Made by a program: the position numbers and the translations under genes | The notes under the pieces: generated by a model | Seen by the model: only the letters and a program-made list of their open reading frames with translations | What the model was told of the DNA's origin: nothing | Database searches by the model: none | From: Escherichia coli | GTDB lineage: Bacteria; Pseudomonadota; Gammaproteobacteria; Enterobacterales; Enterobacteriaceae | DNA length: 64,000 nucleotides | Reading direction: 5' to 3' (one strand) | NCBI RefSeq assembly: GCF_036507355.1 | Contig: NZ_AP027877.1 | Part shown: positions 6,013 through 45,339 of the stretch, piece after piece | Numbering within the stretch: position 1 is the first letter of the stretch | Layout: each line of letters starts with the position of its first letter

Positions 6013-6128
6013 GCGAGCAGCATTCCTGATTTTAAACGTGAACGCCGCTGGAAGAATTATCAGGTATAGAATGGCGTCGGGTGCTTGAGGCTGTCTGGCG
6101 TTAAGCATTCGCGAGGTTCCAGATGGAC

Positions 6129-6181
6129 AAAAGCCCCAGGCGATATTTCTATCAACCTGAGGCTCGCGTTCGAACGTAGCA
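6129..6181 (-). ncRNA. candidate Sok-like antisense RNA of the hok locus
   Basis: Minus strand: -35 TTGCCT (6216..6211), 17-bp spacer, -10 TAACAT (6193..6188), then about 55 nt ending in an 8-bp hairpin (gcctcagg/cctggggc) plus UUUU; antisense to the hok leader. Confidence 0.4.
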
Positions 6182-6219
6182 ATTCGGATGTTAGTCTCTT
6201 CTTTGCAGGGAGGCAAGAC

Positions 6220-6372
6220 ATGCTAACAAAATATGCCCTTGTGGCAATCATAGTACTGTGTTGTACAGTACTGGGATTCACGCTCATGGTAGGCGACTCG
6301 TTATGTGAGTTGAATATCAGAGAGCGTGGTATGGAGTTTAAGGCAGTTCTCGCTTACGAATCGAAGAAGTAG
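6220..6372 (+). CDS. Hok/Gef-family type I toxin (small membrane peptide)
   Basis: 50-aa product [50 protein letters not shown], closely resembling chromosomal Hok peptides (HokE-like as I recall it); SD gcagggagg upstream; leader begins with the hok-type motif ggtgcttgaggctgtctggc. Confidence 0.8.
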
Positions 6373-6737
6373 CCACCACGTGGGGGTAAAACCCCGCGTA
6401 TTGAATTGTGATGGTTTGGTCTCCTGCACCCTTTTTTAAATTTATATTTTTTATGTGAATATATTGTCTCTATTTATTATTATGAATTTCAAATGAAAAT
6501 CATAAATTTATTCACAATATAAATGTTTTATTGGCTGATATATATCACAGATAATTTTTAAAATATGCGTAAATATCCTTTAAGTTTACTGAAGGATAAA
6601 AATATTGTGACTTTCTTTGATTTCTGGGGAAAAACCCGACGCGACGAGAAAGAAGGGGGTGACGACTATCACCTTCTTTGCTGGCATTCGCTGGATGTGG
6701 CCGCGATGGGCTATTTAATGGTTAAAAGAAATTGCTT

Positions 6738-6746
6738 CGGGCTGGC
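6738..6746. repeat. IS1 target-site duplication, left copy (CGGGCTGGC)
   Basis: Identical 9-mer immediately flanks both IS1 ends. Confidence 0.85.
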
Positions 6747-6761
6747 GGTAATGACTCCAAC

Positions 6762-7265
6762 TTATTGATAGTGTTTTATGTTCAGATAATGCCCGATGAC
6801 TTTGTCATGCAGCTCCACCGATTTTGAGAACGACAGCGACTTCCGTCCCAGCCGTGCCAGGTGCTGCCTCAGATTCAGGTTATGCCGCTCAATTCGCTGC
6901 GTATATCGCTTGCTGATTACGTGCAGCTTTCCCTTCAGGCGGGATTCATACAGCGGCCAGCCATCCGTCATCCATATCACCACGTCAAAGGGTGACAGCA
7001 GGCTCATAAGACGCCCCAGCGTCGCCATCGTGCGTTCACCGAATACGTGCGCAACAACCGTCTTCCGGAGCCTGTCATACGCGTAAAACAGCCAGCGCTG
7101 GCGCGATTTAGCCCCGACATAGCCCCACTGTTCGTCCATTTCCGCGCAGACGATGACGTCACTGCCCGGCTGTATGCGCGAGGTTACCGACTGCGGCCTG
7201 AGTTTTTTAAGTGACGTAAAATCGTGTTGAGGCCAACGCCCATAATGCGGGCTGTTGCCCGGCAT
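6762..7265 (-). CDS. insB: IS1 transposase InsB (InsAB' C-terminal part)
   Basis: 167-aa [30 protein letters not shown] ... NIKHYQ. Confidence 0.9.
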
Positions 7266-7459
7266 CCAACGCCATTCATGGCCATATCAATGATTTTCTG
7301 GTGCGTACCGGGTTGAGAAGCGGTGTAAGTGAACTGCAGTTGCCATGTTTTACGGCAGTGAGAGCAGAGATAGCGCTGATGTCCGGCGGTGCTTTTGCCG
7401 TTACGCACCACCCCGTCAGTAGCTGAACAGGAGGGACAGCTGATAGAAACAGAAGCCAC
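7184..7459 (-). CDS. insA: IS1 InsA (transposition repressor / InsAB' N-terminal part)
   Basis: 91-aa [43 protein letters not shown]. Confidence 0.9.
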
Positions 7460-7514
7460 TGGAGCACCTCAAAAACACCATCATACACTAAATCAGTAAG
7501 TTGGCAGCATCACC

Positions 7515-7523
7515 CGGGCTGGC
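7515..7523. repeat. IS1 target-site duplication, right copy (CGGGCTGGC)
   Basis: Identical to 6738..6746. Confidence 0.85.
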
Positions 7524-9451
7524 TGATTATTTTCGTCAATTAGGGATTTCTGACAAGGAACAGGCGGCTCAATTTTTCGCCTGGTTGTTGTGCTGGCACG
7601 ATATTGGAAAATTTGCCCGCTCATTTCAGCAACTTTACCTGCACCCACAACTCAAGGTTCCGGAAGGCGCAAGAAAGAATTACGAAAAGATCTCTCATTC
7701 AACGCTGGGCTACTGGTTGTGGCATCATTATTTAAGTGAATGCGAAGAATTGCTTCCTGCCTCTTCACTCTCTACTCGCAAACTTAAACGTGTAATAGCG
7801 ATGTGGATGCCCATGACTACCGGGCATCATGGTCGGCCCCCTGACCGTATTGATGAACTGGATAATTTTCTGCCTGAAGACAAAGTTGCCGCGCGAGATT
7901 TTCTCCTTGAAATCAAGGCACTGTGTCCGCTCATAGAGATTCCCACATTCTGGGATAATGACGAGGGAGTTGAACTTTTAAAACAACTTTCCTGGTATAT
8001 CTCTGCAACAGTCGTACTTGCAGACTGGACGGGTTCGTCAACGCGATTTTTTCCACGCGTCGCACACCCAATGGATATTAAAGATTACTGGCAGAAAACT
8101 TTAGTTCAGGCTCAAAACGCCTTAACCGTCTTTCCTCCAAAAGCAGAAACCGCACCTTTCACCGGAATTAATACGCTGTTTCCTTTTATTGAGCACCCGA
8201 CACCATTACAGCAAAAGGTGCTGGATCTGGATATCAGCCAGCCAGGGCCACAGTTATTTATTCTGGAAGACGTGACTGGCGCAGGTAAAACAGAAGCGGC
8301 GCTTATCCTGGCGCACAGGTTGATGGCTGCGAGGAAAGCACAGGGTTTGTTTTTTGGCCTGCCAACAATGGCAACGGCCAATGCCATGTACGATCGGCTG
8401 GTCAAAACCTGGCTTGCTTTCTATTCGCCAGAGTCCCGCCCCAGCCTGGTGCTGGCACACAGTGCCCGCACATTAATGGACCGCTTTAATGAATCACTCT
8501 GGTCCGGTGATTTAGTCGGGTCAGAAGAACCGGATGAACAAGCGTTCAGTCAAGGATGTGCAGCCTGGTTTGCCGACAGTAACAAGAAGGCTTTACTGGC
8601 TGAAATTGGCGTCGGCACGCTGGATCAGGCGATGATGGCGGTGATGCCGTTCAAACATAATAATCTGCGGCTTCTGGGGCTGAGTAACAAAATCCTGCTG
8701 GCTGATGAGATCCACGCCTGTGACGCTTACATGTCATGCATTCTTGAAGGGCTGATCGAGCGGCAGGCGCGTGGTGGAAACAGCGTCATTTTGCTTTCTG
8801 CTACGTTATCCCAACAGCAGCGCGACAAACTCGTCGCCGCCTTTGCGCGTGGCACAGAGGGCCAGCAAGAAGCTCCGTTCCTTGAAAAGGATGATTACCC
8901 CTGGCTGACGCATGTCACGAAATCCGATGTGAACTCACACCGGGTAGCGACGCGCAAAGACGTTGAGCGTAGCGTCAGCGTGGGTTGGCTTCATAGTGAA
9001 CAAGAGAGTATTGCGCGTATCGAATCGGCGGTAAGTCAGGGAAAATGCATCGCCTGGATCCGCAATTCTGTCGATGACGCTATTAAGGTTCATCGTCAGC
9101 TGCTTGCCCGCGGCGTCATTCCCGCTTCCAGCCTTTCACTCTTTCATAGCCGCTTTGCTTTTAGCGATCGCCAGCGAATCGAAACGGAAACGCTGGCACG
9201 CTTTGGTAAAAATTGTAATTTAAAAAGATCATCGCAAGTCATTGTTTGTACACAAGTAATTGAGCAAAGTGTGGATATTGACCTGGACGAAATGATCTCC
9301 GACCTTGCCCCCATTGATTTGCTGATCCAGCGAGCGGGGCGATTACAGCGACATATCCGCGATATTAATGGTCAGTTAAAGCGTGACGGAAAAGACGAGC
9401 GTTCCCCTCCTGAATTGCTGATTCTGGCCCCCGTCTGGGACGACGCTCCTG

Positions 9452-9781
9452 GTGACGAATGGTTCGGCAGTGCCATGCGTACGCGCCTTTACAGAGGCCG
9501 CGCTTAAAGTCTCACCAACCGGAAAACAAAACAGCTTTGCCAGCCGTGCCTACGCCTCCTGGGCGCTGGCGGAAAAAGGCACTGTTCAACCGCGTTCTCT
9601 GGCGGCGGCTTTCTATGAACCCATTAATGGTACCCGTCAGTTAGATGTGGCGGTGCAGCGTATTACAACGCTTCGCGAAAACATGAATACGGTCTACGAA
9701 CAGAAGACTGAATGCGCAAGTTTTGACGTGATGAACAAACAGGGAAGCATGAAGGACGTACTGGACTTTATCTGCGCGTAA
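9452..9781 (+). other. cas gene remnant: either the 3' end of a Cascade gene (likely cas7e/casC) or a frameshifted Cas3 C-terminal segment
   Basis: 109-codon ORF in the +1 frame relative to cas3, overlapping its end by 55 nt; its stop lies 10 nt before the casD-like start with an intervening SD (aagggg), an operon-internal spacing. Confidence 0.35.
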
Positions 9782-9791
9782 GGGGCGGCTT

Positions 9792-9870
9792 ATGAGCCAA
9801 TATCTGATTTTTCAGCTTCATGGGCCAATGGCATCCTGGGGCGTCGATGCCCCCGGCGAAGTGCGTCATA
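9792..9870 (+). pseudogene. casD: casD (cas5e) 5' remnant, about 25 codons, fused out of frame to cas1
   Basis: N-terminus MSQYLIFQLHGPMASWG matches the Cas5e N-terminus as I remember it from E. coli (MRSYLILRLAGPMQAWG); similarity is lost where the Cas1 frame begins. Confidence 0.6.
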
Positions 9871-10973
<1,103 letters not shown>

Positions 10974-11069
10974 GTTATGTGTTCTTTAAAAATAAGGAAA
11001 TGTTTGAATTTAGTTGGTAGATTGTTGATGTGGAATAAATTTGTTTAAAAACAGATATGTATGCTTAGT
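10974..11069 (+). promoter_or_regulatory. CRISPR leader (AT-rich)
   Basis: About 95 bp of AT-rich sequence between the cas2 stop and the first repeat. Confidence 0.7.
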
Positions 11070-11281
11070 GTGTTCCCGGCGCCAGCGGGGATAAACCGAC
11101 GAGGGGCTCGTTATTCGGGAAATTACAAAAGTGTTCCCCGCGCCAGCGGGGATAAACCGGCCCAGGGATTTGTTCAATCCAGCGTGCCGCTGTGTTCCCC
11201 GCATCAGCGGGGATAAACCGGGCGCACTGGATGCGATGATGGATATCACTTAGAATTCCCCGCCCCTGCGGTAGAACTCCC
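11070..11281 (+). CRISPR. type I-E CRISPR array: 3 spacers of 32 nt, three 29-bp repeats and a degenerate terminal repeat
   Basis: Repeats GTGTTCCCGGCGCCAGCGGGGATAAACCG (11070..11098), GTGTTCCCCGCGCCAGCGGGGATAAACCG (11131..11159), GTGTTCCCCGCATCAGCGGGGATAAACCG (11192..11220), degenerate gaattccccgcccctgcggtagaactccc (11253..11281); spacers at 11099..11130, 11160..11191, 11221..11252. Confidence 0.9.
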
Positions 11282-16429: not shown

Positions 16430-17140
16430 ATGGCAACCACTCATTTGGATGTTTGCGCCGTGGTTCCGGCGGCCGGATTTGGCCGTCGAATGCAAACGGA
16501 ATGTCCTAAGCAATATCTCTCAATCGGTAATCAAACCATTCTTGAACACTCGGTGCATGCGCTGCTGGCGCATCCCCGGGTGAAACGTGTCGTCATTGCC
16601 ATAAGTCCTGGCGATAGCCGTTTTGCACAACTTCCTCTGGCGAATCATCCGCAAATCACCGTTGTAGATGGCGGTGATGAGCGTGCCGATTCCGTGCTGG
16701 CAGGTTTGAAAGCCGCTGGCGACGCGCAGTGGGTATTGGTGCATGACGCCGCTCGTCCTTGTCTGCATCAGGATGACCTCGCGCGATTGTTGGCGTTGAG
16801 CGAAACCAGCCGCACGGGAGGGATCCTAGCCGCACCAGTGCGCGATACTATGAAACGTGCCGAACCGGGCAAAAATGCCATTGCTCATACCGTTGATCGC
16901 AACGGCTTATGGCACGCGCTGACGCCGCAATTTTTCCCTCGTGAGCTGTTACATGACTGTCTGACGCGCGCTCTAAATGAAGGCGCGACTATTACCGACG
17001 AAGCCTCGGCGCTGGAATATTGCGGATTCCATCCTCAGTTGGTCGAAGGCCGTGCGGATAACATTAAAGTCACGCGCCCGGAGGATTTGGCACTGGCCGA
17101 GTTTTACCTCACCCGAACCATCCATCAGGAGAATACATAA
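16430..17140 (+). CDS. ispD: 2-C-methyl-D-erythritol 4-phosphate cytidylyltransferase
   Basis: 236-aa ORF; conserved ftsB-ispD-ispF order. Confidence 0.93.
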
Positions 17141-17619
17141 TGCGAATTGGACACGGTTTTGACGTACACGCCTTTGGCGGTGAAGGCCCAATTATCATTG
17201 GTGGCGTACGCATTCCTTACGAAAAAGGATTGCTGGCGCATTCTGATGGCGACGTGGCGCTCCATGCGTTGACCGATGCATTGCTTGGCGCGGCGGCGCT
17301 GGGGGATATCGGCAAGCTGTTCCCGGATACCGATCCGGCATTTAAAGGTGCCGATAGCCGCGAGCTGCTACGCGAAGCCTGGCGTCGTATTCAGGCGAAG
17401 GGTTATACCCTTGGCAACGTCGATGTCACTATCATCGCTCAGGCACCGAAGATGTTGCCGCACATTCCACAAATGCGCGTGTTTATTGCCGAAGATCTCG
17501 GCTGCCATATGGATGATGTTAACGTGAAAGCCACTACTACGGAAAAACTTGGATTTACCGGACGTGGGGAAGGGATTGCCTGTGAAGCGGTGGCGCTACT
17601 CATTAAGGCAACAAAATGA
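17140..17619 (+). CDS. ispF: 2-C-methyl-D-erythritol 2,4-cyclodiphosphate synthase
   Basis: 159-aa [42 protein letters not shown]. Confidence 0.95.
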
Positions 17620-18645
17620 TTGAGTTTGATAATCTCACTTACCTCCACGGTAAACCGCAAGGCACCGGGCTGCTGAAAGCCAATCCGGAAGACTTTGTGG
17701 TGGTGGAAGATTTGGGCTTTGAGCCTGATGGTGAAGGTGAGCATATTCTGGTTAGAATCCTCAAAAACGGCTGCAATACCCGTTTTGTGGCGGATGCACT
17801 GGCGAAATTCCTGAAAATTCATGCCCGTGAAGTCAGCTTTGCTGGGCAAAAAGACAAACATGCTGTTACAGAACAGTGGTTATGCGCTCGCGTGCCGGGC
17901 AAGGAAATGCCCGATCTGAGCGCCTTTCAACTGGAAGGCTGCCAGGTGCTGGAGTATGCGCGGCACAAGCGCAAGCTGCGTTTAGGGGCGCTGAAAGGTA
18001 ACGCCTTTACCCTGGTTCTGCGCGAAGTGAGCAATCGCGATGACGTTGAACAACGTCTGATCGATATTTGCGTAAAAGGTGTACCGAACTACTTCGGTGC
18101 CCAACGTTTTGGGATTGGCGGTAGCAACTTGCAGGGCGCGCTGCGCTGGGCGCAAACCAATACTCCGGTGCGCGATCGCAATAAACGGAGTTTTTGGTTG
18201 TCGGCAGCCCGCAGTGCGTTGTTTAATCAGATTGTTGCTGAGCGCCTCAAAAAAGCAGACGTTAATCAAGTTGTTGACGGCGATGCGCTACAATTAGCCG
18301 GACGTGGTAGCTGGTTTGTCGCAACCACCGAAGAACTGGCGGAATTACAGCGTCGCGTCAACGATAAAGAGCTGATGATAACCGCCGCATTGCCGGGCAG
18401 TGGCGAATGGGGAACTCAGCGTGAAGCGCTGGCATTCGAACAAGCAGCTGTCGCCGCAGAAACTGAATTACAAGCTTTACTGGTGCGCGAAAAAGTTGAA
18501 GCCGCGCGCAGAGCGATGCTGCTGTATCCGCAACAATTAAGCTGGAACTGGTGGGATGACGTCACCGTAGAGATCCGTTTCTGGCTTCCGGCGGGTAGTT
18601 TTGCAACCAGCGTTGTCAGGGAACTTATCAACACAACAGGTGATT

Positions 18646-18665
<20 letters not shown>
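17616..18665 (+). CDS. truD: tRNA pseudouridine(13) synthase
   Basis: 349-aa ORF overlapping ispF stop; conserved position. Confidence 0.92.
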
Positions 18666-20027
<1,362 letters not shown>

Positions 20028-20166
20028 AACGTGAGGAAATACCTGGATTTTTCCTGGTTATTTTGCCGCAGGTCAGCGTATCGTGAACATCTTTTCCAGT
20101 GTTCAGTATGGTGCCCTGCACGGTAATTATGTCACTGGTTATTAACCAATTTTTCCTGGGGGATAA

Positions 20167-21306
20167 ATGAGCGCGGGAAGCCCAAAATTCACCGTTCGCC
20201 GCATTGCGGCTTTGTCACTGGTTTCGCTATGGCTGGCAGGCTGTTCTGACACTTCAAATCCACCGGCACCGGTCAGTTCCGTCAATGGCAATGCGCCTGC
20301 AAATACCAATTCTGGTATGTTGATTACGCCGCCGCCGAAAATGGGGACGACGTCTACAGCGCAGCAACCGCAAATTCAGCCGGTACAGCAGCCACAAATT
20401 CAGGCTACTCAACAACCGCAAATCCAGCCAGTGCAGCCAGTAGCTCAGCAGCCGGTACAGATGGAAAACGGACGCATCGTCTATAACCGTCAGTATGGGA
20501 ACATTCCGAAAGGCAGTTATAGCGGCAGTACATACACCGTGAAAAAAGGCGACACACTTTTCTATATCGCCTGGATTACTGGCAACGATTTCCGTGACCT
20601 TGCTCAGCGCAACAATATTCAGGCACCATACGCGCTGAACGTTGGTCAGACCTTACAGGTGGGGAATGCTTCCGGTACGCCAATCACTGGCGGAAATGCC
20701 ATTACCCAGGCCGACGCAGCAGAGCAAGGAGTTGTGATCAAGCCTGCACAAAATTCCACCGTTGCTGTTGCGTCGCAACCGACAATTACGTATTCTGAGT
20801 CTTCGGGTGAACAGAGTGCTAACAAAATGTTGCCGAACAACAAGCCAACTGCGACCACGGTCACAGCGCCTGTAACGGTACCAACAGCAAGCACAACCGA
20901 GCCGACTGTCAGCAGTACATCAACCAGTACGCCTATCTCCACCTGGCGCTGGCCGACTGAGGGCAAAGTGATCGAAACCTTTGGCGCTTCTGAGGGGGGC
21001 AACAAGGGGATTGATATCGCAGGCAGCAAAGGACAGGCAATTATCGCGACCGCAGATGGCCGCGTTGTTTATGCTGGTAACGCGCTGCGCGGCTACGGTA
21101 ATCTGATTATCATCAAACATAATGATGATTACCTGAGTGCCTACGCCCATAACGACACAATGCTGGTCCGGGAACAACAAGAAGTGAAGGCGGGGCAAAA
21201 AATAGCAACCATGGGTAGCACCGGAACCAGTTCAACACGCTTGCATTTTGAAATTCGTTACAAGGGGAAATCCGTAAACCCGCTGCGTTATTTGCCGCAG
21301 CGATAA
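20167..21306 (+). CDS. nlpD: murein hydrolase activator lipoprotein NlpD (LysM + degenerate M23 domain)
   Basis: 379-aa ORF with lipoprotein signal (LAGCSD), Q/P-rich repeats, LysM and M23-like C-terminus; the rpoS promoter is expected inside this gene. Confidence 0.93.
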
Positions 21307-21368
21307 ATCGGCGGAACCAGGCTTTTGCTTGAATGTTCCGTCAAGGGATCACGGGTAGGAGCCACCTT

Positions 21369-22361
21369 ATGAGTCAGAATACGCTGAAAGTTCATGATTT
21401 AAATGAAGATGCGGAATTTGATGAGAACGGAGTTGAGGTTTTTGACGAAAAGGCCTTAGTAGAAGAGGAACCCAGTGATAACGATTTGGCCGAAGAGGAA
21501 CTGTTATCGCAGGGAGCCACACAGCGTGTGTTGGACGCGACTCAGCTTTACCTTGGTGAGATTGGTTATTCACCACTGTTAACGGCCGAAGAAGAAGTTT
21601 ATTTTGCGCGTCGCGCACTGCGTGGAGATGTCGCCTCTCGCCGCCGGATGATCGAGAGTAACTTGCGTCTGGTGGTAAAAATTGCCCGCCGTTATGGCAA
21701 TCGTGGTCTGGCGTTGCTGGACCTTATCGAAGAGGGCAACCTGGGGCTGATCCGCGCGGTAGAGAAGTTTGACCCGGAACGTGGTTTCCGCTTCTCAACA
21801 TACGCAACCTGGTGGATTCGCCAGACGATTGAACGGGCGATTATGAACCAAACCCGTACTATTCGTTTGCCGATTCACATCGTAAAGGAGCTGAACGTTT
21901 ACCTGCGAACCGCACGTGAGTTGTCCCATAAGCTGGACCATGAACCAAGTGCGGAAGAGATCGCAGAGCAACTGGATAAGCCAGTTGATGACGTCAGCCG
22001 TATGCTTCGTCTTAACGAGCGCATTACCTCGGTAGACACCCCGCTGGGTGGTGATTCCGAAAAAGCGTTGCTGGACATCCTGGCCGATGAAAAAGAGAAC
22101 GGTCCGGAAGATACCACGCAAGATGACGATATGAAGCAGAGCATCGTCAAATGGCTGTTCGAGCTGAACGCCAAACAGCGTGAAGTACTGGCACGTCGAT
22201 TCGGTTTGCTGGGGTACGAAGCGGCAACACTGGAAGATGTAGGTCGTGAAATTGGCCTCACCCGTGAACGTGTTCGCCAGATTCAGGTTGAAGGCCTGCG
22301 CCGTTTGCGCGAAATCCTGCAAACGCAGGGGCTGAATATCGAAGCGCTGTTCCGCGAATAA
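21369..22361 (+). CDS. rpoS: RNA polymerase sigma factor RpoS (sigma-38)
   Basis: ORF 21333..22361; start at internal [17 protein letters not shown] (330 aa); intact, no premature stop; residue 33 is Glu. Confidence 0.95.
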
Positions 22362-22377
22362 GTAAGCATCTGTCAGA

Positions 22378-22414
22378 AAGGCCAGTCTCAAGCGAGGCTG
22401 GCCTTTTTCTTTTG
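22378..22414 (+). terminator. rho-independent terminator of rpoS
   Basis: Hairpin ggccagtctcaagcgaggctggcc followed by tttttctttt. Confidence 0.8.
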
Positions 22415-22480
22415 TTTGGGAAGCTTGTGTTTTTGTCGCCTGGATAAGACACGTCAGCGTCCTACCCGGCAATTTGCATC

Positions 22481-22888
22481 CTATGTGTTCATCATCTTGC
22501 GCACCAGCTGCACAAACAGCTCCTGCTCTTCTGCACTCAAACGCCCCAAAAATTCCTCATCCACGCTGTCACCAATCGGTATCGCCGCAGCAAGTATCTT
22601 TTCTCCTTCGGCAGTCAGCCAGACAAAGCGACGCCGCTTGTCAGCGGCATCATGTTCACGTCTGACTAAGCCACGATTCTCCATTCTTGCCAACATTTCT
22701 GCCAACGTTGCTTTGGTGCTGACTGCTGCTTCTATCAGTGCCACCTGTTCGATACCAGGCTTATCAGCAATGGCGCGCATCACCGCATACTGTGGTTTGG
22801 TCAGGTCAGGTAACTCGTGCTGCCAGCGAGCCGTGTGCTGCTGAAAAAGCTGTCGTAACTGATGGAACGCTTTATTTCGTAACGCCAT
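22481..22888 (-). CDS. hosA: MarR/SlyA-family transcriptional regulator (HosA-like)
   Basis: 135-aa ORF with winged-helix region; divergent from the adjacent decarboxylase genes. Confidence 0.75.
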   Translation of the reverse strand: MALRNKAFHQLRQLFQQHTARWQHELPDLTKPQYAVMRAIADKPGIEQVALIEAAVSTKATLAEMLARMENRGLVRREHDAADKRRRFVWLTAEGEKILAAAIPIGDSVDEEFLGRLSAEEQELFVQLVRKMMNT

Positions 22889-23034
22889 GTAAACTCCGGG
22901 CTAATTCTCTGTCGCTATCATAGCGGTTTTTTAGTGACGAAGAAGATGTTGTTACTTTTCAATCCTTGCCGCTGTGGAAATGAAGGAGTATGTTAATAAT
23001 AACGTTCGTATACGAACAATTAAGAGAATAAGCA

Positions 23035-23628
23035 ATGAAACTGATCGTCGGGATGACAGGGGCTACCGGTGCGCCTCTTGGTGTGGCATTACTGCAAGCG
23101 CTGCGGGAGATGCCGAATGTCGAGACTCATCTGGTGATGTCGAAGTGGGCGAAAACCACCATTGAACTGGAAACGCCTTACAGCGCCCGCGATGTTGCTG
23201 CCCTCGCTGACTTCAGCCATAACCCGGCGGATCAGGCGGCGACCATCTCCTCAGGTTCCTTTCGTACCGACGGCATGATCGTTATTCCGTGCAGTATGAA
23301 AACGCTCGCCGGTATCCGCGCTGGTTACGCCGATGGCCTGGTAGGGCGCGCGGCGGACGTCGTGCTCAAAGAAGGCCGCAAACTGGTGCTGGTGCCGCGT
23401 GAAATGCCGCTTAGCACCATCCATCTCGAAAATATGCTCGCACTTTCACGCATGGGCGTGGCGATGGTGCCGCCGATGCCTGCCTTTTATAACCATCCCG
23501 AAACGGTAGATGACATTGTCCACCATGTAGTAGCCCGCGTGCTGGATCAATTTGGCCTCGAACATCCCCACGCCAGGCGCTGGCAAGGATTGCCGCAGGC
23601 CCGGAATTTTTCTCAGGAGAATGAATAA
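23035..23628 (+). CDS. ecdB: UbiX/Pad1-family flavin prenyltransferase (decarboxylase accessory subunit B)
   Basis: 197-aa ORF MKLIVGMTGATGAPLGVALLQALREMPNVETHLVMSKWA, typical UbiX N-terminus. Confidence 0.8.
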   Translation: MKLIVGMTGATGAPLGVALLQALREMPNVETHLVMSKWAKTTIELETPYSARDVAALADFSHNPADQAATISSGSFRTDGMIVIPCSMKTLAGIRAGYADGLVGRAADVVLKEGRKLVLVPREMPLSTIHLENMLALSRMGVAMVPPMPAFYNHPETVDDIVHHVVARVLDQFGLEHPHARRWQGLPQARNFSQENE

Positions 23629-25055
23629 TGGCATTTGATGATTTACGCAGCTTTTTACAGGCGCTTGATGACCACGGCCAGTTACTGAAAATCAGCGAAG
23701 AGGTGAACGCGGAACCGGATCTGGCAGCAGCAGCTAACGCCACCGGGCGTATCGGTGACGGCGCGCCCGCGCTGTGGTTTGATAATATTCGCGGCTTTAC
23801 CGATGCCCGCGTGGCAATGAACACCATCGGTTCCTGGCAGAACCACGCGATTTCCCTCGGCCTGTCGCCAAACACCCCGGTCAAAAAGCAGATTGATGAG
23901 TTTATCCGCCGCTGGGATAACTTCCCGATTGCCCCGGAGCGCCGCGCCAATCCAGCCTGGGCGCAGAACACCGTCGATGGCGACGAGATCAACCTGTTCG
24001 ATATCCTGCCGCTGTTTCGTTTAAACGATGGCGATGGCGGTTTCTATCTCGACAAAGCGTGCGTGGTTTCCCGCGATCCGCTCGACCCGGATAACTTCGG
24101 CAAGCAGAACGTCGGCATCTACCGCATGGAAGTGAAGGGCAAGCGTAAGCTCGGCCTGCAACCGGTGCCGATGCACGATATCGCCCTGCATCTGCATAAA
24201 GCGGAAGAGCGCGGTGAAGATCTGCCGATTGCGATCACGCTCGGTAACGATCCGATCATCACGCTGATGGGGGCCACGCCGCTGAAATACGAACAGTCTG
24301 AGTATGAAATGGCAGGTGCGCTGCGTGAAAGCCCGTACCCGATCGCCACCGCCCCGCTGACCGGTTTTGATGTGCCGTGGGGTTCAGAAGTGATCCTCGA
24401 AGGGGTCATCGAAAGCCGTAAACGCGAAATCGAAGGGCCGTTCGGTGAGTTTACCGGACACTACTCCGGCGGGCGTAACATGACCGTGGTGCGCATCGAT
24501 AAAGTCTCTTACCGCACCAGGCCGATTTTCGAATCGCTGTACCTCGGCATGCCGTGGACCGAAATCGACTACCTGATGGGGCCAGCCACCTGTGTGCCGC
24601 TGTATCAGCAACTTAAAGCCGAGTTCCCGGAAGTACAGGCGGTGAACGCCATGTACAACCACGGCCTGCTGGCGATTATCTCCACCAAAAAACGCTACGG
24701 CGGCTTTGCCCGCGCGGTGGGCCTGCGTGCGATGACCACGCCGCACGGTCTGGGCTACGTAAAGATGGTGATTATGGTCGATGAAGACGTTGACCCGTTC
24801 AACCTGCCGCAGGTGATGTGGGCGCTCTCCTCGAAAGTAAATCCGGCAGGGGATTTGGTGCAGTTGCCGAATATGTCCGTGCTGGAACTCGACCCTGGCT
24901 CAAGCCCGGCGGGGATCACCGACAAGCTGATTATCGACGCCACCACGCCTGTCGCCCCGGACAACCGTGGTCACTACAGCCAGCCGGTGGTGGATTTGCC
25001 GGAAACCAAAGCCTGGGCTGAAAAACTGACCGCTATGCTGGCCGCACGTAAATAA
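23628..25055 (+). CDS. ecdC: UbiD-family non-oxidative aromatic acid decarboxylase (subunit C)
   Basis: 475-aa ORF overlapping ecdB stop; UbiD-like N-terminus MAFDDLRSFLQALDDHGQLLKISEEV. Confidence 0.8.
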   Translation: MAFDDLRSFLQALDDHGQLLKISEEVNAEPDLAAAANATGRIGDGAPALWFDNIRGFTDARVAMNTIGSWQNHAISLGLSPNTPVKKQIDEFIRRWDNFPIAPERRANPAWAQNTVDGDEINLFDILPLFRLNDGDGGFYLDKACVVSRDPLDPDNFGKQNVGIYRMEVKGKRKLGLQPVPMHDIALHLHKAEERGEDLPIAITLGNDPIITLMGATPLKYEQSEYEMAGALRESPYPIATAPLTGFDVPWGSEVILEGVIESRKREIEGPFGEFTGHYSGGRNMTVVRIDKVSYRTRPIFESLYLGMPWTEIDYLMGPATCVPLYQQLKAEFPEVQAVNAMYNHGLLAIISTKKRYGGFARAVGLRAMTTPHGLGYVKMVIMVDEDVDPFNLPQVMWALSSKVNPAGDLVQLPNMSVLELDPGSSPAGITDKLIIDATTPVAPDNRGHYSQPVVDLPETKAWAEKLTAMLAARK

Positions 25056-25065
25056 GGAGAACAAG

Positions 25066-25302
25066 ATGATTTGTCCACGTTGTGCCGATGAACAGATTGA
25101 AGTGATGGCGAAATCGCCGGTGAAAGATGTCTGGACGGTATATCAGTGCCAGCATTGCCTTTATACCTGGCGCGATACCGAACCGCTACGTCGCATCAGC
25201 CGCGAACATTATCCCGAAGCGTTCCGCATGACGCAGAAAGATATTGATGACGCGCCAATGGTGCCGAGCATTCCGCCGCTGCTGGCGGCAGATAAGCGCT
25301 AA
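25066..25302 (+). CDS. ecdD: small decarboxylase subunit D (zinc-ribbon-like, CxxC ... CxxC)
   Basis: 78-aa ORF MICPRCADEQIEVMAKSPVKDVWTVYQCQHCLYTWRD. Confidence 0.7.
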   Translation: MICPRCADEQIEVMAKSPVKDVWTVYQCQHCLYTWRDTEPLRRISREHYPEAFRMTQKDIDDAPMVPSIPPLLAADKR

Positions 25303-25303
25303 T

Positions 25304-25338
25304 AAAAAGTGCCGGGTAGTGGCTTTGCTTTACCCGGC
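25304..25338. terminator. bidirectional terminator between ecdD and pphB
   Basis: Hairpin gccgggta ... tacccggc with a T-run on the plus side and an A-run on the other. Confidence 0.6.
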
Positions 25339-25342
25339 CTCA

Positions 25343-25999
25343 TTACTTTATTTTATAAAATGACAGCCGCCCGCTTTTCGGCGATCCGGTATCAATATAA
25401 ATCTGGTTAGCGAACGTCTGAATGTTATCAAGCATCATATGTCCAAATATAAAATAATCAGCGCCGTTTATTTGTTGTAACTCGCCATTAAGAGATTTCT
25501 GCACACGATCAACAGGCCAAAGTAATTCGCTCTCCGCTATTTGTTTGCCAAAGAGATATTCATTGCCCGGATAATCCGCATGTGCGATGACATATTTTAT
25601 AATGTCGTTGGTAATTTCAATAATATGTGGAAGTTGATGAAATTTCAGCAATAGACCTATAGCTTCTTTTTGTTCCATATCATTTAACTCAAAGAACCAG
25701 TCACCACCGCTGGCAAGCCACATATTGCCATCGCCGGTCGCGAACGCATCCAGCGCCATTGCTTCGTGGTTGCCTTTAACGGAGATAAACCAGGGCTGGT
25801 TTAGCAGGCGCAGGACGTCAAGACTCTCCGGCCCACGATCAATATTATCGCCGACAGAAATAAGTAAGTCGGTTTCGGGGAAAAAAGAGAGTTGATGTAA
25901 GCGGGATTGTAATAACTGATATTCACCATGAATATCACCAACGACCCATATATGGCGATAGTGATGGGCATTGATTTTTTGATAGCGTGTAGATGGCAT
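25343..25999 (-). CDS. pphB: serine/threonine protein phosphatase 2
   Basis: 218-aa ORF with metallophosphatase motifs GDIHGE and GDNIDRG. Confidence 0.9.
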   Translation of the reverse strand: MPSTRYQKINAHHYRHIWVVGDIHGEYQLLQSRLHQLSFFPETDLLISVGDNIDRGPESLDVLRLLNQPWFISVKGNHEAMALDAFATGDGNMWLASGGDWFFELNDMEQKEAIGLLLKFHQLPHIIEITNDIIKYVIAHADYPGNEYLFGKQIAESELLWPVDRVQKSLNGELQQINGADYFIFGHMMLDNIQTFANQIYIDTGSPKSGRLSFYKIK

Positions 26000-26104: not shown

Positions 26105-28666
26105 TTACACCAGACTCTTCAAGCGATAAATCCACTCCAGCGCCTGACGCGGGGTGAGTGAATCCGGATCGAGGTTTTCCAGTGCCTCGACCGCAGGCGA
26201 GGTTTCTTCTGGCACTGACAGCAAAGACATTTGCGTACCATCCACTTGCGTAGCGGCGGCGTTCGGCGAAATGCTTTCCAGCTCACGCAGTTTTTGCCGT
26301 GCGCGCTTAATAACCTCTTTTGGCACGCCGGCCAGAGCTGCAACCGCCAGGCCGTAGCTTTTGCTCGCCGCGCCATCCTGCACGCTATGCATAAAGGCAA
26401 TGGTGTCGCCGTGCTCCAGTGCATCGAGATGCACGTTGGCGACGCCTTCCATTTTCTCCGGTAACTGGGTCAGCTCGAAATAGTGGGTAGCAAACAGCGT
26501 CAATGCCTTAATCTTATTCGCCAGATTTTCCGCGCACGCCCATGCCAGTGACAGACCATCGTAAGTGGACGTTCCACGCCCGATCTCATCCATTAACACC
26601 AGACTGTATTCGGTGGCGTTATGTAAAATATTGGCGGTTTCAGTCATCTCCACCATAAAGGTTGAGCGCCCGGAAGCCAGGTCATCTGCCGCGCCTACGC
26701 GGGTAAAGATGCGATCGATAGGTCCAATCTCGACTTTTTGTGCCGGTACATAGCTGCCGATGTAGGCCATCAGCGCAATCAGTGCGGTCTGGCGCATATA
26801 GGTACTTTTACCGCCCATGTTCGGGCCGGTAATAATCAACATCCGGCGCTGCGGTGACAGATTCAGCGGGTTGGCGATAAATGGCTCGTTCAGCACCTGT
26901 TCAACCACCGGATGGCGGCCTTCGGTAATGCGAATGCCCGGTTTATCAATAAAGGTCGGGCAGGTGTAGTTCAGGGTATAGGCCCGTTCCGCCAGGTTCA
27001 CCAGCACGTCGAGTTCCGCCAGCGCGCTCGCGCTCTGTTGCAACGCTTCCAGATGCGGCAACAGCAGGTCGAACAGCTCTTCATAAAGCTGTTTTTCCAG
27101 AGCCAGTGCTTTGCCTTTTGAAGTGAGGACTTTATCTTCGTACTCTTTTAGCTCTGGAATGATGTAGCGCTCGGCGTTTTTCAGCGTCTGGCGACGCATA
27201 TAGTTGATAGGTGCCAGATGGCTTTGCCCACGGCTGATTTGAATGTAGTAGCCGTGCACCGCATTAAAGCCAACTTTTAGCGTGTCCAGGCCGGTACGTT
27301 CACGCTCGCGGACTTCCAGACGCTCCAGATAATCGGTCGCGCCGTCAGCCAGCGCGCGCCACTCATCCAGCTCTTCGTTATAGCCCGATGCGATAACACC
27401 ACCGTCGCGTACCAGCACCGGCGGTGTGTCGATGATTGCTCGCTCCAGCAGATCGCGCAGCTCGGCAAACTCGCCCATCTTCTCACGCAGCGCCTGTACC
27501 GGTGCACTATCGACAGTTTCTAACTGCGCACGCAGCTCCGGCAGTTGCTGGAAAGCGTGGCGCATACGGGCCAGATCGCGTGGGCGAGCGGTACGCAACG
27601 CCAGACGCGCCAGAATACGTTCCAGGTCGCCGACCTGACGCAGTACCGGCTGTAGCTCGGCGGTGAAATCCTGCAATGCGCCAATAGTTTGCTGGCGCTC
27701 AAGCAACACGCGGGTATCGCGCACTGGCATATGCAGCCAGCGTTTCAGCATACGGCTGCCCATCGGCGTGACGGTGCAGTCGAGCACAGAAGCCAGCGTA
27801 TTTTCCGCACCACCCGCCAGGTTCTGGGTGATTTCCAGATTACGACGCGTCGCGGCATCCATAATGATGCTGTCCTGCTCACGTTCCATGGTGATGGAAC
27901 GAATATGCGGCAGAGTCGTACGTTGGGTATCTTTCGCATACTGCAACAGACAACCGGCAGCACAAAGTCCGCGCGGCGCGTTCTCGACGCCAAAACCGAC
28001 CAGATCGCGAGTGCCAAATTGCAGATTCAACTGCTGGCGCGCGGTGTCGATTTCAAACTCCCACAGCGGGCGACGGCGCAGGCCGCGACGGCCTTCAATT
28101 AACGACATTTCAGCAAAATCTTCTGCATACAGCAATTCCGCAGGATTAGTGCGTTGCAGTTCTGCCGCCATCGTTTCCCGGTCAGCCGGTTCGCTCAGGC
28201 GAAAACGCCCGGAGCTGATATCCAGCGTCGCGTAGCCGAAACCTTTGCTGTCCTGCCAGATAGCCGCCAGCAGGTTGTCCTGACGCTCCTGCAACAGGGC
28301 TTCATCGCTGATGGTGCCTGGCGTAACGATACGCACAACTTTGCGCTCAACCGGACCTTTGCTGGTCGCCGGATCGCCAATTTGTTCGCAGATGGCAACG
28401 GACTCGCCCTGATTCACCAGTTTGGCGAGGTAGTTTTCCACCGCATGGTAGGGAATCCCCGCCATCGGGATCGGCTCTCCCGCCGAAGCACCGCGTTTGG
28501 TCAGTGAAATATCCAGCAGTTGCGACGCGCGTTTTGCGTCGTCATAAAACAGTTCATAAAAATCACCCATCCGGTAAAACAGCAGGATCTCGGGATGCTG
28601 GGCTTTCAGCTTGAGATACTGCTGCATCATGGGCGTATGGGCGTCGAAATTTTCTATTGCACTCAT
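26105..28666 (-). CDS. mutS: DNA mismatch repair protein MutS
   Basis: 853-aa [43 protein letters not shown] with Walker [10 protein letters not shown]. Confidence 0.97.
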
Positions 28667-43676: not shown

Positions 43677-44450
43677 TTGAACATCAGAACAGGGATGTGC
43701 GCTTTTTTATTGAGCTTAGTGCAGTCTGCACAGGCCACCAGCTTTACCGAATATCTGCCAATGAGTGGCAGCGAATATGCGCAAAAGCGGGCGCTGAAAC
43801 CTCTCCTGACCATGCCTTATTATACCGAGCAAACTTGGCATTTTAGAAAAATCGGCGTTGCTGGCGTGACGCTTGAGAAGATGCCAAATGAAGAGGATTA
43901 CTGGCAATTAACCGCTAAAGACCGCGCGGGTAAATCCTGGACGGTGCCAGTGGGGTTGCTGGCAAATATGGCGGGCAAAGGGCAGCTCTATCGCGCCGAT
44001 CTGGATCGTAACGGCATTCAGGATCTGGTTATCTGGTTGCCAAGTGCCGGTAATGGTCTGGCGCCCTATGCACATTTAATCCTCATGACGTTCACGCACG
44101 AAGGCCGTCCCTGTGTCTTTGAACCCTGGGGATTCTACACTGCAAGCAAAACTGGCGTAGATGATTTGCTGGATTTACAAGGCAATGGTCACACGCAATT
44201 GCTGGATATGCAGTTTAATTCTGGTTACTGGATAACCAGTCTGTATCAGGTAAAAGACGCCAAATGGCAGCGTGTTCACGGCTGGTTTGGCAAGTTAAGC
44301 TATCCCGCGCTCACGCGTTTTACTTATACCCCCAACCGTAAACTCGTCCTCAAACCCATCGCCGGGCGCGACACACAAACGGAAGATCTGTCGCTGACGC
44401 AGCGTTGCTTGATAAAGGGGGATATGCTTGATGGGGTGAATCAGAACTGA
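43677..44450 (+). CDS. secreted protein of unknown function with two FG-GAP-like D-x-D-x-N-G-x-x-D loops
   Basis: 257-aa ORF starting 24 nt after the hycI stop; N-terminal signal peptide (CAFLLSLVQSAQA|TS); motifs ADLDRNGIQDLVIW and DLLDLQGNGHTQLLD. Confidence 0.6.
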   Translation: MNIRTGMCAFLLSLVQSAQATSFTEYLPMSGSEYAQKRALKPLLTMPYYTEQTWHFRKIGVAGVTLEKMPNEEDYWQLTAKDRAGKSWTVPVGLLANMAGKGQLYRADLDRNGIQDLVIWLPSAGNGLAPYAHLILMTFTHEGRPCVFEPWGFYTASKTGVDDLLDLQGNGHTQLLDMQFNSGYWITSLYQVKDAKWQRVHGWFGKLSYPALTRFTYTPNRKLVLKPIAGRDTQTEDLSLTQRCLIKGDMLDGVNQN

Positions 44451-44611
44451 CTTTTTGCAGAGTGGTTATGAGGATTTTGGGGGTAATTATATCACGCGCA
44501 AGTGTTTACATATTGTGAACTTGGATTTGATGAGCTATAGTTTCCGAACACATGAGGATAGAACTCGCAGATGTGGCTGTTTACTTACTATAAGGAAGTT
44601 AAAACTTAAAA

Positions 44612-44923
44612 ATGCACATCATTTCTAAAGCGCCATTTGAAGAGTCTGCGCGTAAATATCCTAACGACGCTCTGGCTCTTCAGGCATTGTATCGGGTTAT
44701 TAAGGAAACGGATTTTTCTACGCCAGAAGAAATGCGAACGGCTTTTCCCAACCTCGACAATTTTAAATATCGCAACAAATGGTACGTTCTGGATGTCGGC
44801 GGGAACAATCTTAGGGTTATTGCCTACATAAACTTTGTTAATAAGCGGTTCTTTGTGAAGCACATAACGAATCACGCAGAGTATGACAAACTGACACGTT
44901 ACTACAGAGAGAACAAAGAATGA
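44612..44923 (+). CDS. HigB-like type II toxin (RelE/ParE superfamily)
   Basis: 103-aa ORF MHIISKAPFEESARKYPND ... FPNLDNFKYRNKWYVLDVGGNNLRVIAYINF, collinear with E. coli HigB as recalled; toxin gene precedes and overlaps the antitoxin gene (ATGA), the inverted order typical of higBA. Confidence 0.75.
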   Translation: MHIISKAPFEESARKYPNDALALQALYRVIKETDFSTPEEMRTAFPNLDNFKYRNKWYVLDVGGNNLRVIAYINFVNKRFFVKHITNHAEYDKLTRYYRENKE

Positions 44924-45339
44924 CTGCTAATGCTGCACGCGCTGTTAAAGCAACAAGAGAACTGGTCAATGCAGTCCCCTTTCTGGGAGGCAGTGACTCA
45001 GAAGATGATTATCGTGAAGCACTGGAACTGGTCGAATATTTGATTGAAGAAGATGACACCAATCCACTTATCGACTTTCTGGCGAGCCGCATTGCAGAGT
45101 ATGAAAACAACAACGAAAAGTTTGCAGAGTTCGACAAAGCCGTTGCGGCAATGCCGGTTGGCGTGGCGTTACTTCGCACGTTGATTGATCAACATAATCT
45201 GACCTATGCGGATTTGAAGAACGAAATCGGCTCTAAATCCCTGGTCAGTCAGATTTTGTCTGGACAACGATCCCTGACAATATCCCACATTAAGGCACTT
45301 TCAGCCCGATTTGGCGTTAAGCCGGAATGGTTTCTTTGA
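44920..45339 (+). CDS. HigA-like antitoxin (C-terminal XRE-type HTH)
   Basis: 139-aa ORF with C-terminal HTH region GSKSLVSQILSGQRSLTISHIKALSARFGV. Confidence 0.75.
   Translation: MTANAARAVKATRELVNAVPFLGGSDSEDDYREALELVEYLIEEDDTNPLIDFLASRIAEYENNNEKFAEFDKAVAAMPVGVALLRTLIDQHNLTYADLKNEIGSKSLVSQILSGQRSLTISHIKALSARFGVKPEWFL

Follow-up and report, generated by a model that had tools for sequence, protein, structure and literature searches.

Does the rpoS gene carried by the Escherichia coli contig NZ_AP027877.1 encode a full-length σS, and does its codon 33 say anything about the lineage of the source? These questions arise from the 64,000-nucleotide stretch of DNA analysed here (the window), for which the initial annotation described an unbroken rpoS frame of 330 amino acids with Glu at residue 33 and, given that K-12 lineages have an amber codon or Gln at this position, judged the allele to be of non-K-12 appearance. 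We have addressed them by comparison of the gene with reference rpoS alleles, of codon 33 with the complete E. coli genomes, and of the regions on both sides of the gene with K-12 and O157:H7.

The rpoS frame

A 993-nt open reading frame occupies positions 21369–22361 of the plus strand, with its ATG at 21369 and a TAA stop at 22359–22361; according to the ORF listing and its translation, it comprises 330 codons plus the stop and contains no internal stops. The gene is thus full-length, as had been claimed, and its coordinates agree with the 993-nt rpoS CDS of the K-12 MG1655 annotation and of RefSeq annotations for E. coli. The ORF listing also includes an upstream in-frame ATG at 21333, which would give an alternative product of 342 aa; the annotated start is the ATG at 21369, just 5' of which a Shine-Dalgarno-like TAGGAG is found. 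The product matches two RpoS equivalog models of NCBIfam well above their cut-offs, namely NF004207 (604.6 bits over residues 1–329; cut-off 394) and TIGR02394 (480.7 bits; cut-off 378.7). Chance is not a concern for this assignment, since many E. coli genomes have an annotated rpoS that matches the gene from end to end with 100% identity.

The domain organization of the protein is complete. The sigma-70 regions 1.2 (residues 56–88, 21534–21632; PF00140, 46.1 bits), 2 (residues 94–163, 21648–21857; PF04542, 81.6 bits), 3 (residues 174–248, 21888–22112; PF04539, 79.1 bits) and 4 (residues 262–315, 22152–22313; PF04545, 61.4 bits) are all present and uninterrupted, and each exceeds its Pfam gathering threshold. 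They are preceded by an acidic N-terminal segment (residues 1–55, 21369–21533), which has no Pfam domain, lies upstream of region 1.2 and includes residue 33. The genes leading into rpoS are pcm (19401–20027) and nlpD (20167–21306), in the same order as in K-12.

Codon 33 and the comparison with K-12

Codon 33 (21465–21467) reads GAG, which confirms Glu as the residue at this position. Direct comparison with rpoS of K-12 MG1655 (NC_000913) gives three nucleotide differences and no gaps, and no premature stop or frameshift was found in this alignment. The first difference, at nt 97, is the one that converts the CAG of MG1655 into the GAG of the window (Gln to Glu at codon 33), whereas the other two, A in the window vs G in MG1655 at nt 819 (codon 273) and again at nt 990 (codon 330), are synonymous. 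The two proteins are therefore identical at 329 of 330 residues (NP_417221.1 for MG1655), E33 vs Q33 being the sole amino-acid change, and the two loci are alike in gene length, start, terminator stem and pcm-nlpD-rpoS order. The σS of PDB entry 6kj6 also has Gln at the position of residue 33 in the single PDB alignment obtained.

The distribution of the codon was surveyed with 81-nt probes centred on codon 33, one for each of three codons, against 5,426 complete E. coli genomes; at this length one mismatch brings the identity below 99%. The GAG (Glu) probe has an exact match in 4,809 of the 5,414 genomes with any match, among them O157:H7 PV15-279 and other natural isolates, the CAG (Gln) probe in 173 genomes and the TAG (amber) probe in 121, where only exact 81-mer matches are counted, some 310 genomes fall outside the three classes owing to further SNPs inside the probe, and end-trimming by megablast may misplace a few genomes. 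The carriers listed for CAG and TAG are for the most part K-12 or laboratory strains known by name: MG1655 substrains are among those listed for CAG, and W3110, J53, HMS174, ER2796 and AG100, together with O16:H48 isolates of 4.6–4.7 Mb, among those listed for TAG. What the initial annotation had stated about K-12 is in keeping with these data, MG1655 having CAG and W3110 and other named K-12 derivatives matching the TAG probe exactly. Glu33 is thus the norm of the species, Gln and amber at codon 33 are marks of K-12 laboratory lineages, and the K-12 reference holds a minority allele.

One strain outside K-12 also appeared with the amber codon: BLR(DE3) (NZ_CP020368.1), a B-strain derivative, matches the K-12 TAG probe exactly. 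It is plausible that this allele came with K-12 DNA imported along with the nearby srl/recA region when the strain was constructed.

At the level of the whole gene, all 993 nt of the window rpoS are 100% identical to those of many natural isolates from human, animal and food sources, including the O157:H7 strain TR01. The protein shows no detected difference from the natural E33 RpoS (WP_000081550.1) of O157:H7 and of many commensal and pathogenic isolates, and at least 1,000 public contigs encode the identical sequence, under the entry name 'MULTISPECIES RpoS [Enterobacteriaceae]'.

These findings agree with published surveys of the locus. In K-12 strains, codon 33 has been reported as TAG, CAG, TAT or GAG, while GAG is common among natural non-K-12 isolates and was found in every VTEC strain tested (PMC2700278). 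Of the 22 ECOR strains that were sequenced, 18 have the Q33E change relative to K-12, and its functional activity is described as similar (PMC3074542). The rpoS(Am) allele of W3110, J53, HMS174 and other K-12 strains is the same gene with the same polymorphic codon, but there the stop TAG makes σS dependent on suppression or downstream re-initiation, whereas here codon 33 is a sense codon and the product is full-length. In the amber strains, a downstream restart of translation can yield a partly active Δ1–53 σS (PMC2763269).

The region between rpoS and mutS

Beyond the gene itself, the window is collinear with K-12 from 16920 to 22407, with 99.4% identity and 33 SNPs over about 5.5 kb. The homology breaks at 22407, inside the T-run of the rpoS terminator, and resumes only at pphB (25344), which is 91.8% identical to its K-12 counterpart. 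The K-12 segment from ygbI to ygbN is missing and a 2.9-kb segment (22408–25343) stands in its place, so that the neighbour downstream of rpoS, which is ygbN (o454) in MG1655 and a trait of the K-12 lineage, is here a slyA-like regulator gene of the MarR family (22481–22888, minus strand; NCBIfam and the RefSeq annotation of a collinear genome). It is followed by vdcB (23035–23628; NCBIfam VdcB), vdcC (23628–25055; NCBIfam VdcC) and vdcD (25066–25302; translation and the RefSeq annotation of the collinear genome), the genes for subunits B, C and D of a non-oxidative hydroxyarylic acid decarboxylase. Further on, MutS (853 aa, 26105–28666, minus strand) is identical to that of O157:H7 (MUTS_ECO57).

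This arrangement has a known counterpart. The polymorphic mutS-rpoS region occurs in a 'pattern I', the O157:H7 or EHEC-1 type, in which rpoS is followed by a slyA-like MarR gene, kpd/vdc B, C and D, pphB and mutS, without o454/ygbN (PMC4209514), and the gene content of the window shows no difference from it. Over 27.7 kb, the window is fully collinear with its best match among the complete RefSeq E. coli genomes, at 98.7% identity. The divergence between the two is uneven along the segment, which suggests recombination in the region. This modest identity and the presence of an IS1 had raised the suspicion of a Shigella origin, which is rejected because exact matches of the encoded proteins (BED21180.1, BED21201.1, BED21215.1) lie on a 4,643,937-bp E. 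coli chromosome with the locus tag VEE46_.

The rpoS leader and terminator

Upstream of rpoS, nlpD (20167–21306, plus strand; NCBIfam NlpD, 679 bits) encodes a protein identical to K-12 NlpD. From what is established about the locus, its 3' part would be the site of the main rpoS promoter and of most of the long rpoS leader. Within the last ~700 nt before the rpoS ATG, the window differs from K-12 only at 21186 and 21207 (−183 and −162 from the start), both changes being synonymous in nlpD, and the 161 nt directly 5' of the ATG are identical. The part of the leader that includes the sRNA-pairing sequence and the inhibitory stem, which we take to extend from about −130 to the ATG, would lie downstream of both SNPs. 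A sigma-70 consensus scan around rpoS returned no promoter matches on the plus strand, a result to which we attach no weight given the crude consensus method, and an Rfam scan of the whole window matched no rpoS-related RNA family, its only match being sok. After the gene, the terminator scan located an intrinsic terminator on the plus strand (22375–22418), with a 15-bp stem followed by the T-run and a fold energy of −27.3 kcal/mol (z = −5.4).

Interpretation of the allele

All together, these results make it almost certain that the window carries the standard wild-type rpoS of a natural, non-K-12 E. coli, encoding a full-length σS with the Glu33 typical of the species. The allele is ordinary and already known. 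The protein would act as the sigma factor of stationary phase and of the general stress response, attached to core RNA polymerase by its regions 1.2 to 4 and guiding the enzyme to the genes of the RpoS regulon. Residue 33 lies outside the conserved sigma domains, in the acidic tail at the N terminus. Judging from the sequence, RpoS is probably expressed and active at a normal level.

Codon 33 alone, however, is not diagnostic of lineage, because some K-12 stocks have been reported with GAG at this codon (PMC2700278, PMC5491219). If the window came from such a stock, whose GAG had arisen by reversion or was ancestral in K-12, Glu33 would be uninformative about its origin. It is the flanking structure that provides the decisive evidence here and refutes this explanation, whose probability we regard as negligible: K-12 collinearity stops at 22407, the MarR gene and vdcBCD replace ygbI-ygbN, pphB is just 91.8% identical to K-12, 33 SNPs lie in the 5.5-kb collinear stretch, the exact proteins map to the E. 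coli genome with the VEE46_ locus tag, and MutS has the O157:H7 sequence. Thus, the suspicion of a non-K-12 allele proves well founded, although on broader grounds than codon 33, including the two synonymous differences within rpoS and the different intergenic structure between rpoS and mutS.

A different objection concerns the amount of σS rather than the origin of the gene. An intact rpoS does not establish high σS activity, since RpoS levels are reported to vary widely among ECOR strains whose RpoS proteins are the same in sequence (PMC3074542). The gene could in this way be intact and yet attenuated, with low σS caused by non-coding changes such as SNPs in the leader or by trans-acting regulators, and the two SNPs at −183 and −162 do fall in the leader region. 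We nevertheless consider attenuation unlikely: both SNPs are synonymous in nlpD and presumably precede the stretch with the sRNA-pairing sequence and the inhibitory stem, the 161 nt before the ATG are the same as in K-12, and the coding sequence is that of the allele that predominates in nature. A related proposal, that either the leader SNPs (21186, 21207) or the neighbouring O157-type MarR/vdcBCD segment might alter the expression or the termination of rpoS with respect to K-12, and thereby set a strain-specific level of σS, appears to us more improbable still.

From a practical point of view, the reading of the locus as the common natural rpoS is of use for annotation quality control and for strain typing, as it marks the source as not being a K-12 derivative and as having an apparently functional rpoS. 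When MG1655 serves as the reference, a Q33E call stems from a particular feature of that strain and is not to be taken for a mutation.

Other loci in the window

Between cysH and iap, the window also contains a decayed CRISPR-Cas locus of type I-E (6565–11220). Its cas3 gene is split by a 768-bp IS1 (6747–7514) flanked by a 9-bp target-site duplication, CGGGCTGGC, and extends to about 9479. A first deletion, which removes the 3' end of cas3 through most of casC, then joins cas3 to a remnant (9480–9877) made up of the last part of casC and the opening ~29 codons of casD, and a second one takes away most of casD through the 5' end of cas1, which resumes from about nt 117 (9876–10683); both deletions were mapped against intact reference loci. 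The cas2 gene (10680–10973) is intact and is followed by an array of three repeats and two spacers (11070–11220). Its protein, present in more than 50,000 index blocks, is too widespread to be informative about the source, but the loci with this protein provided the intact references for the deletions. Among the complete E. coli genomes of the collection, none matched this decayed structure as one contiguous match.

Between cysH and cas3, the sok antitoxin RNA (6079–6235, plus strand; RF01794, 105 bits; gathering score 59) points to a toxin-antitoxin locus of the hok/sok type. Three ORFs occupy the interval between hycI and ascB (43677–45339), namely a hypothetical one (at most 257 aa), a HigB-like toxin (44612–44923) and an HTH, HigA-like antitoxin (44920–45339); a collinear E. 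coli genome in RefSeq has the same three genes in its annotation.
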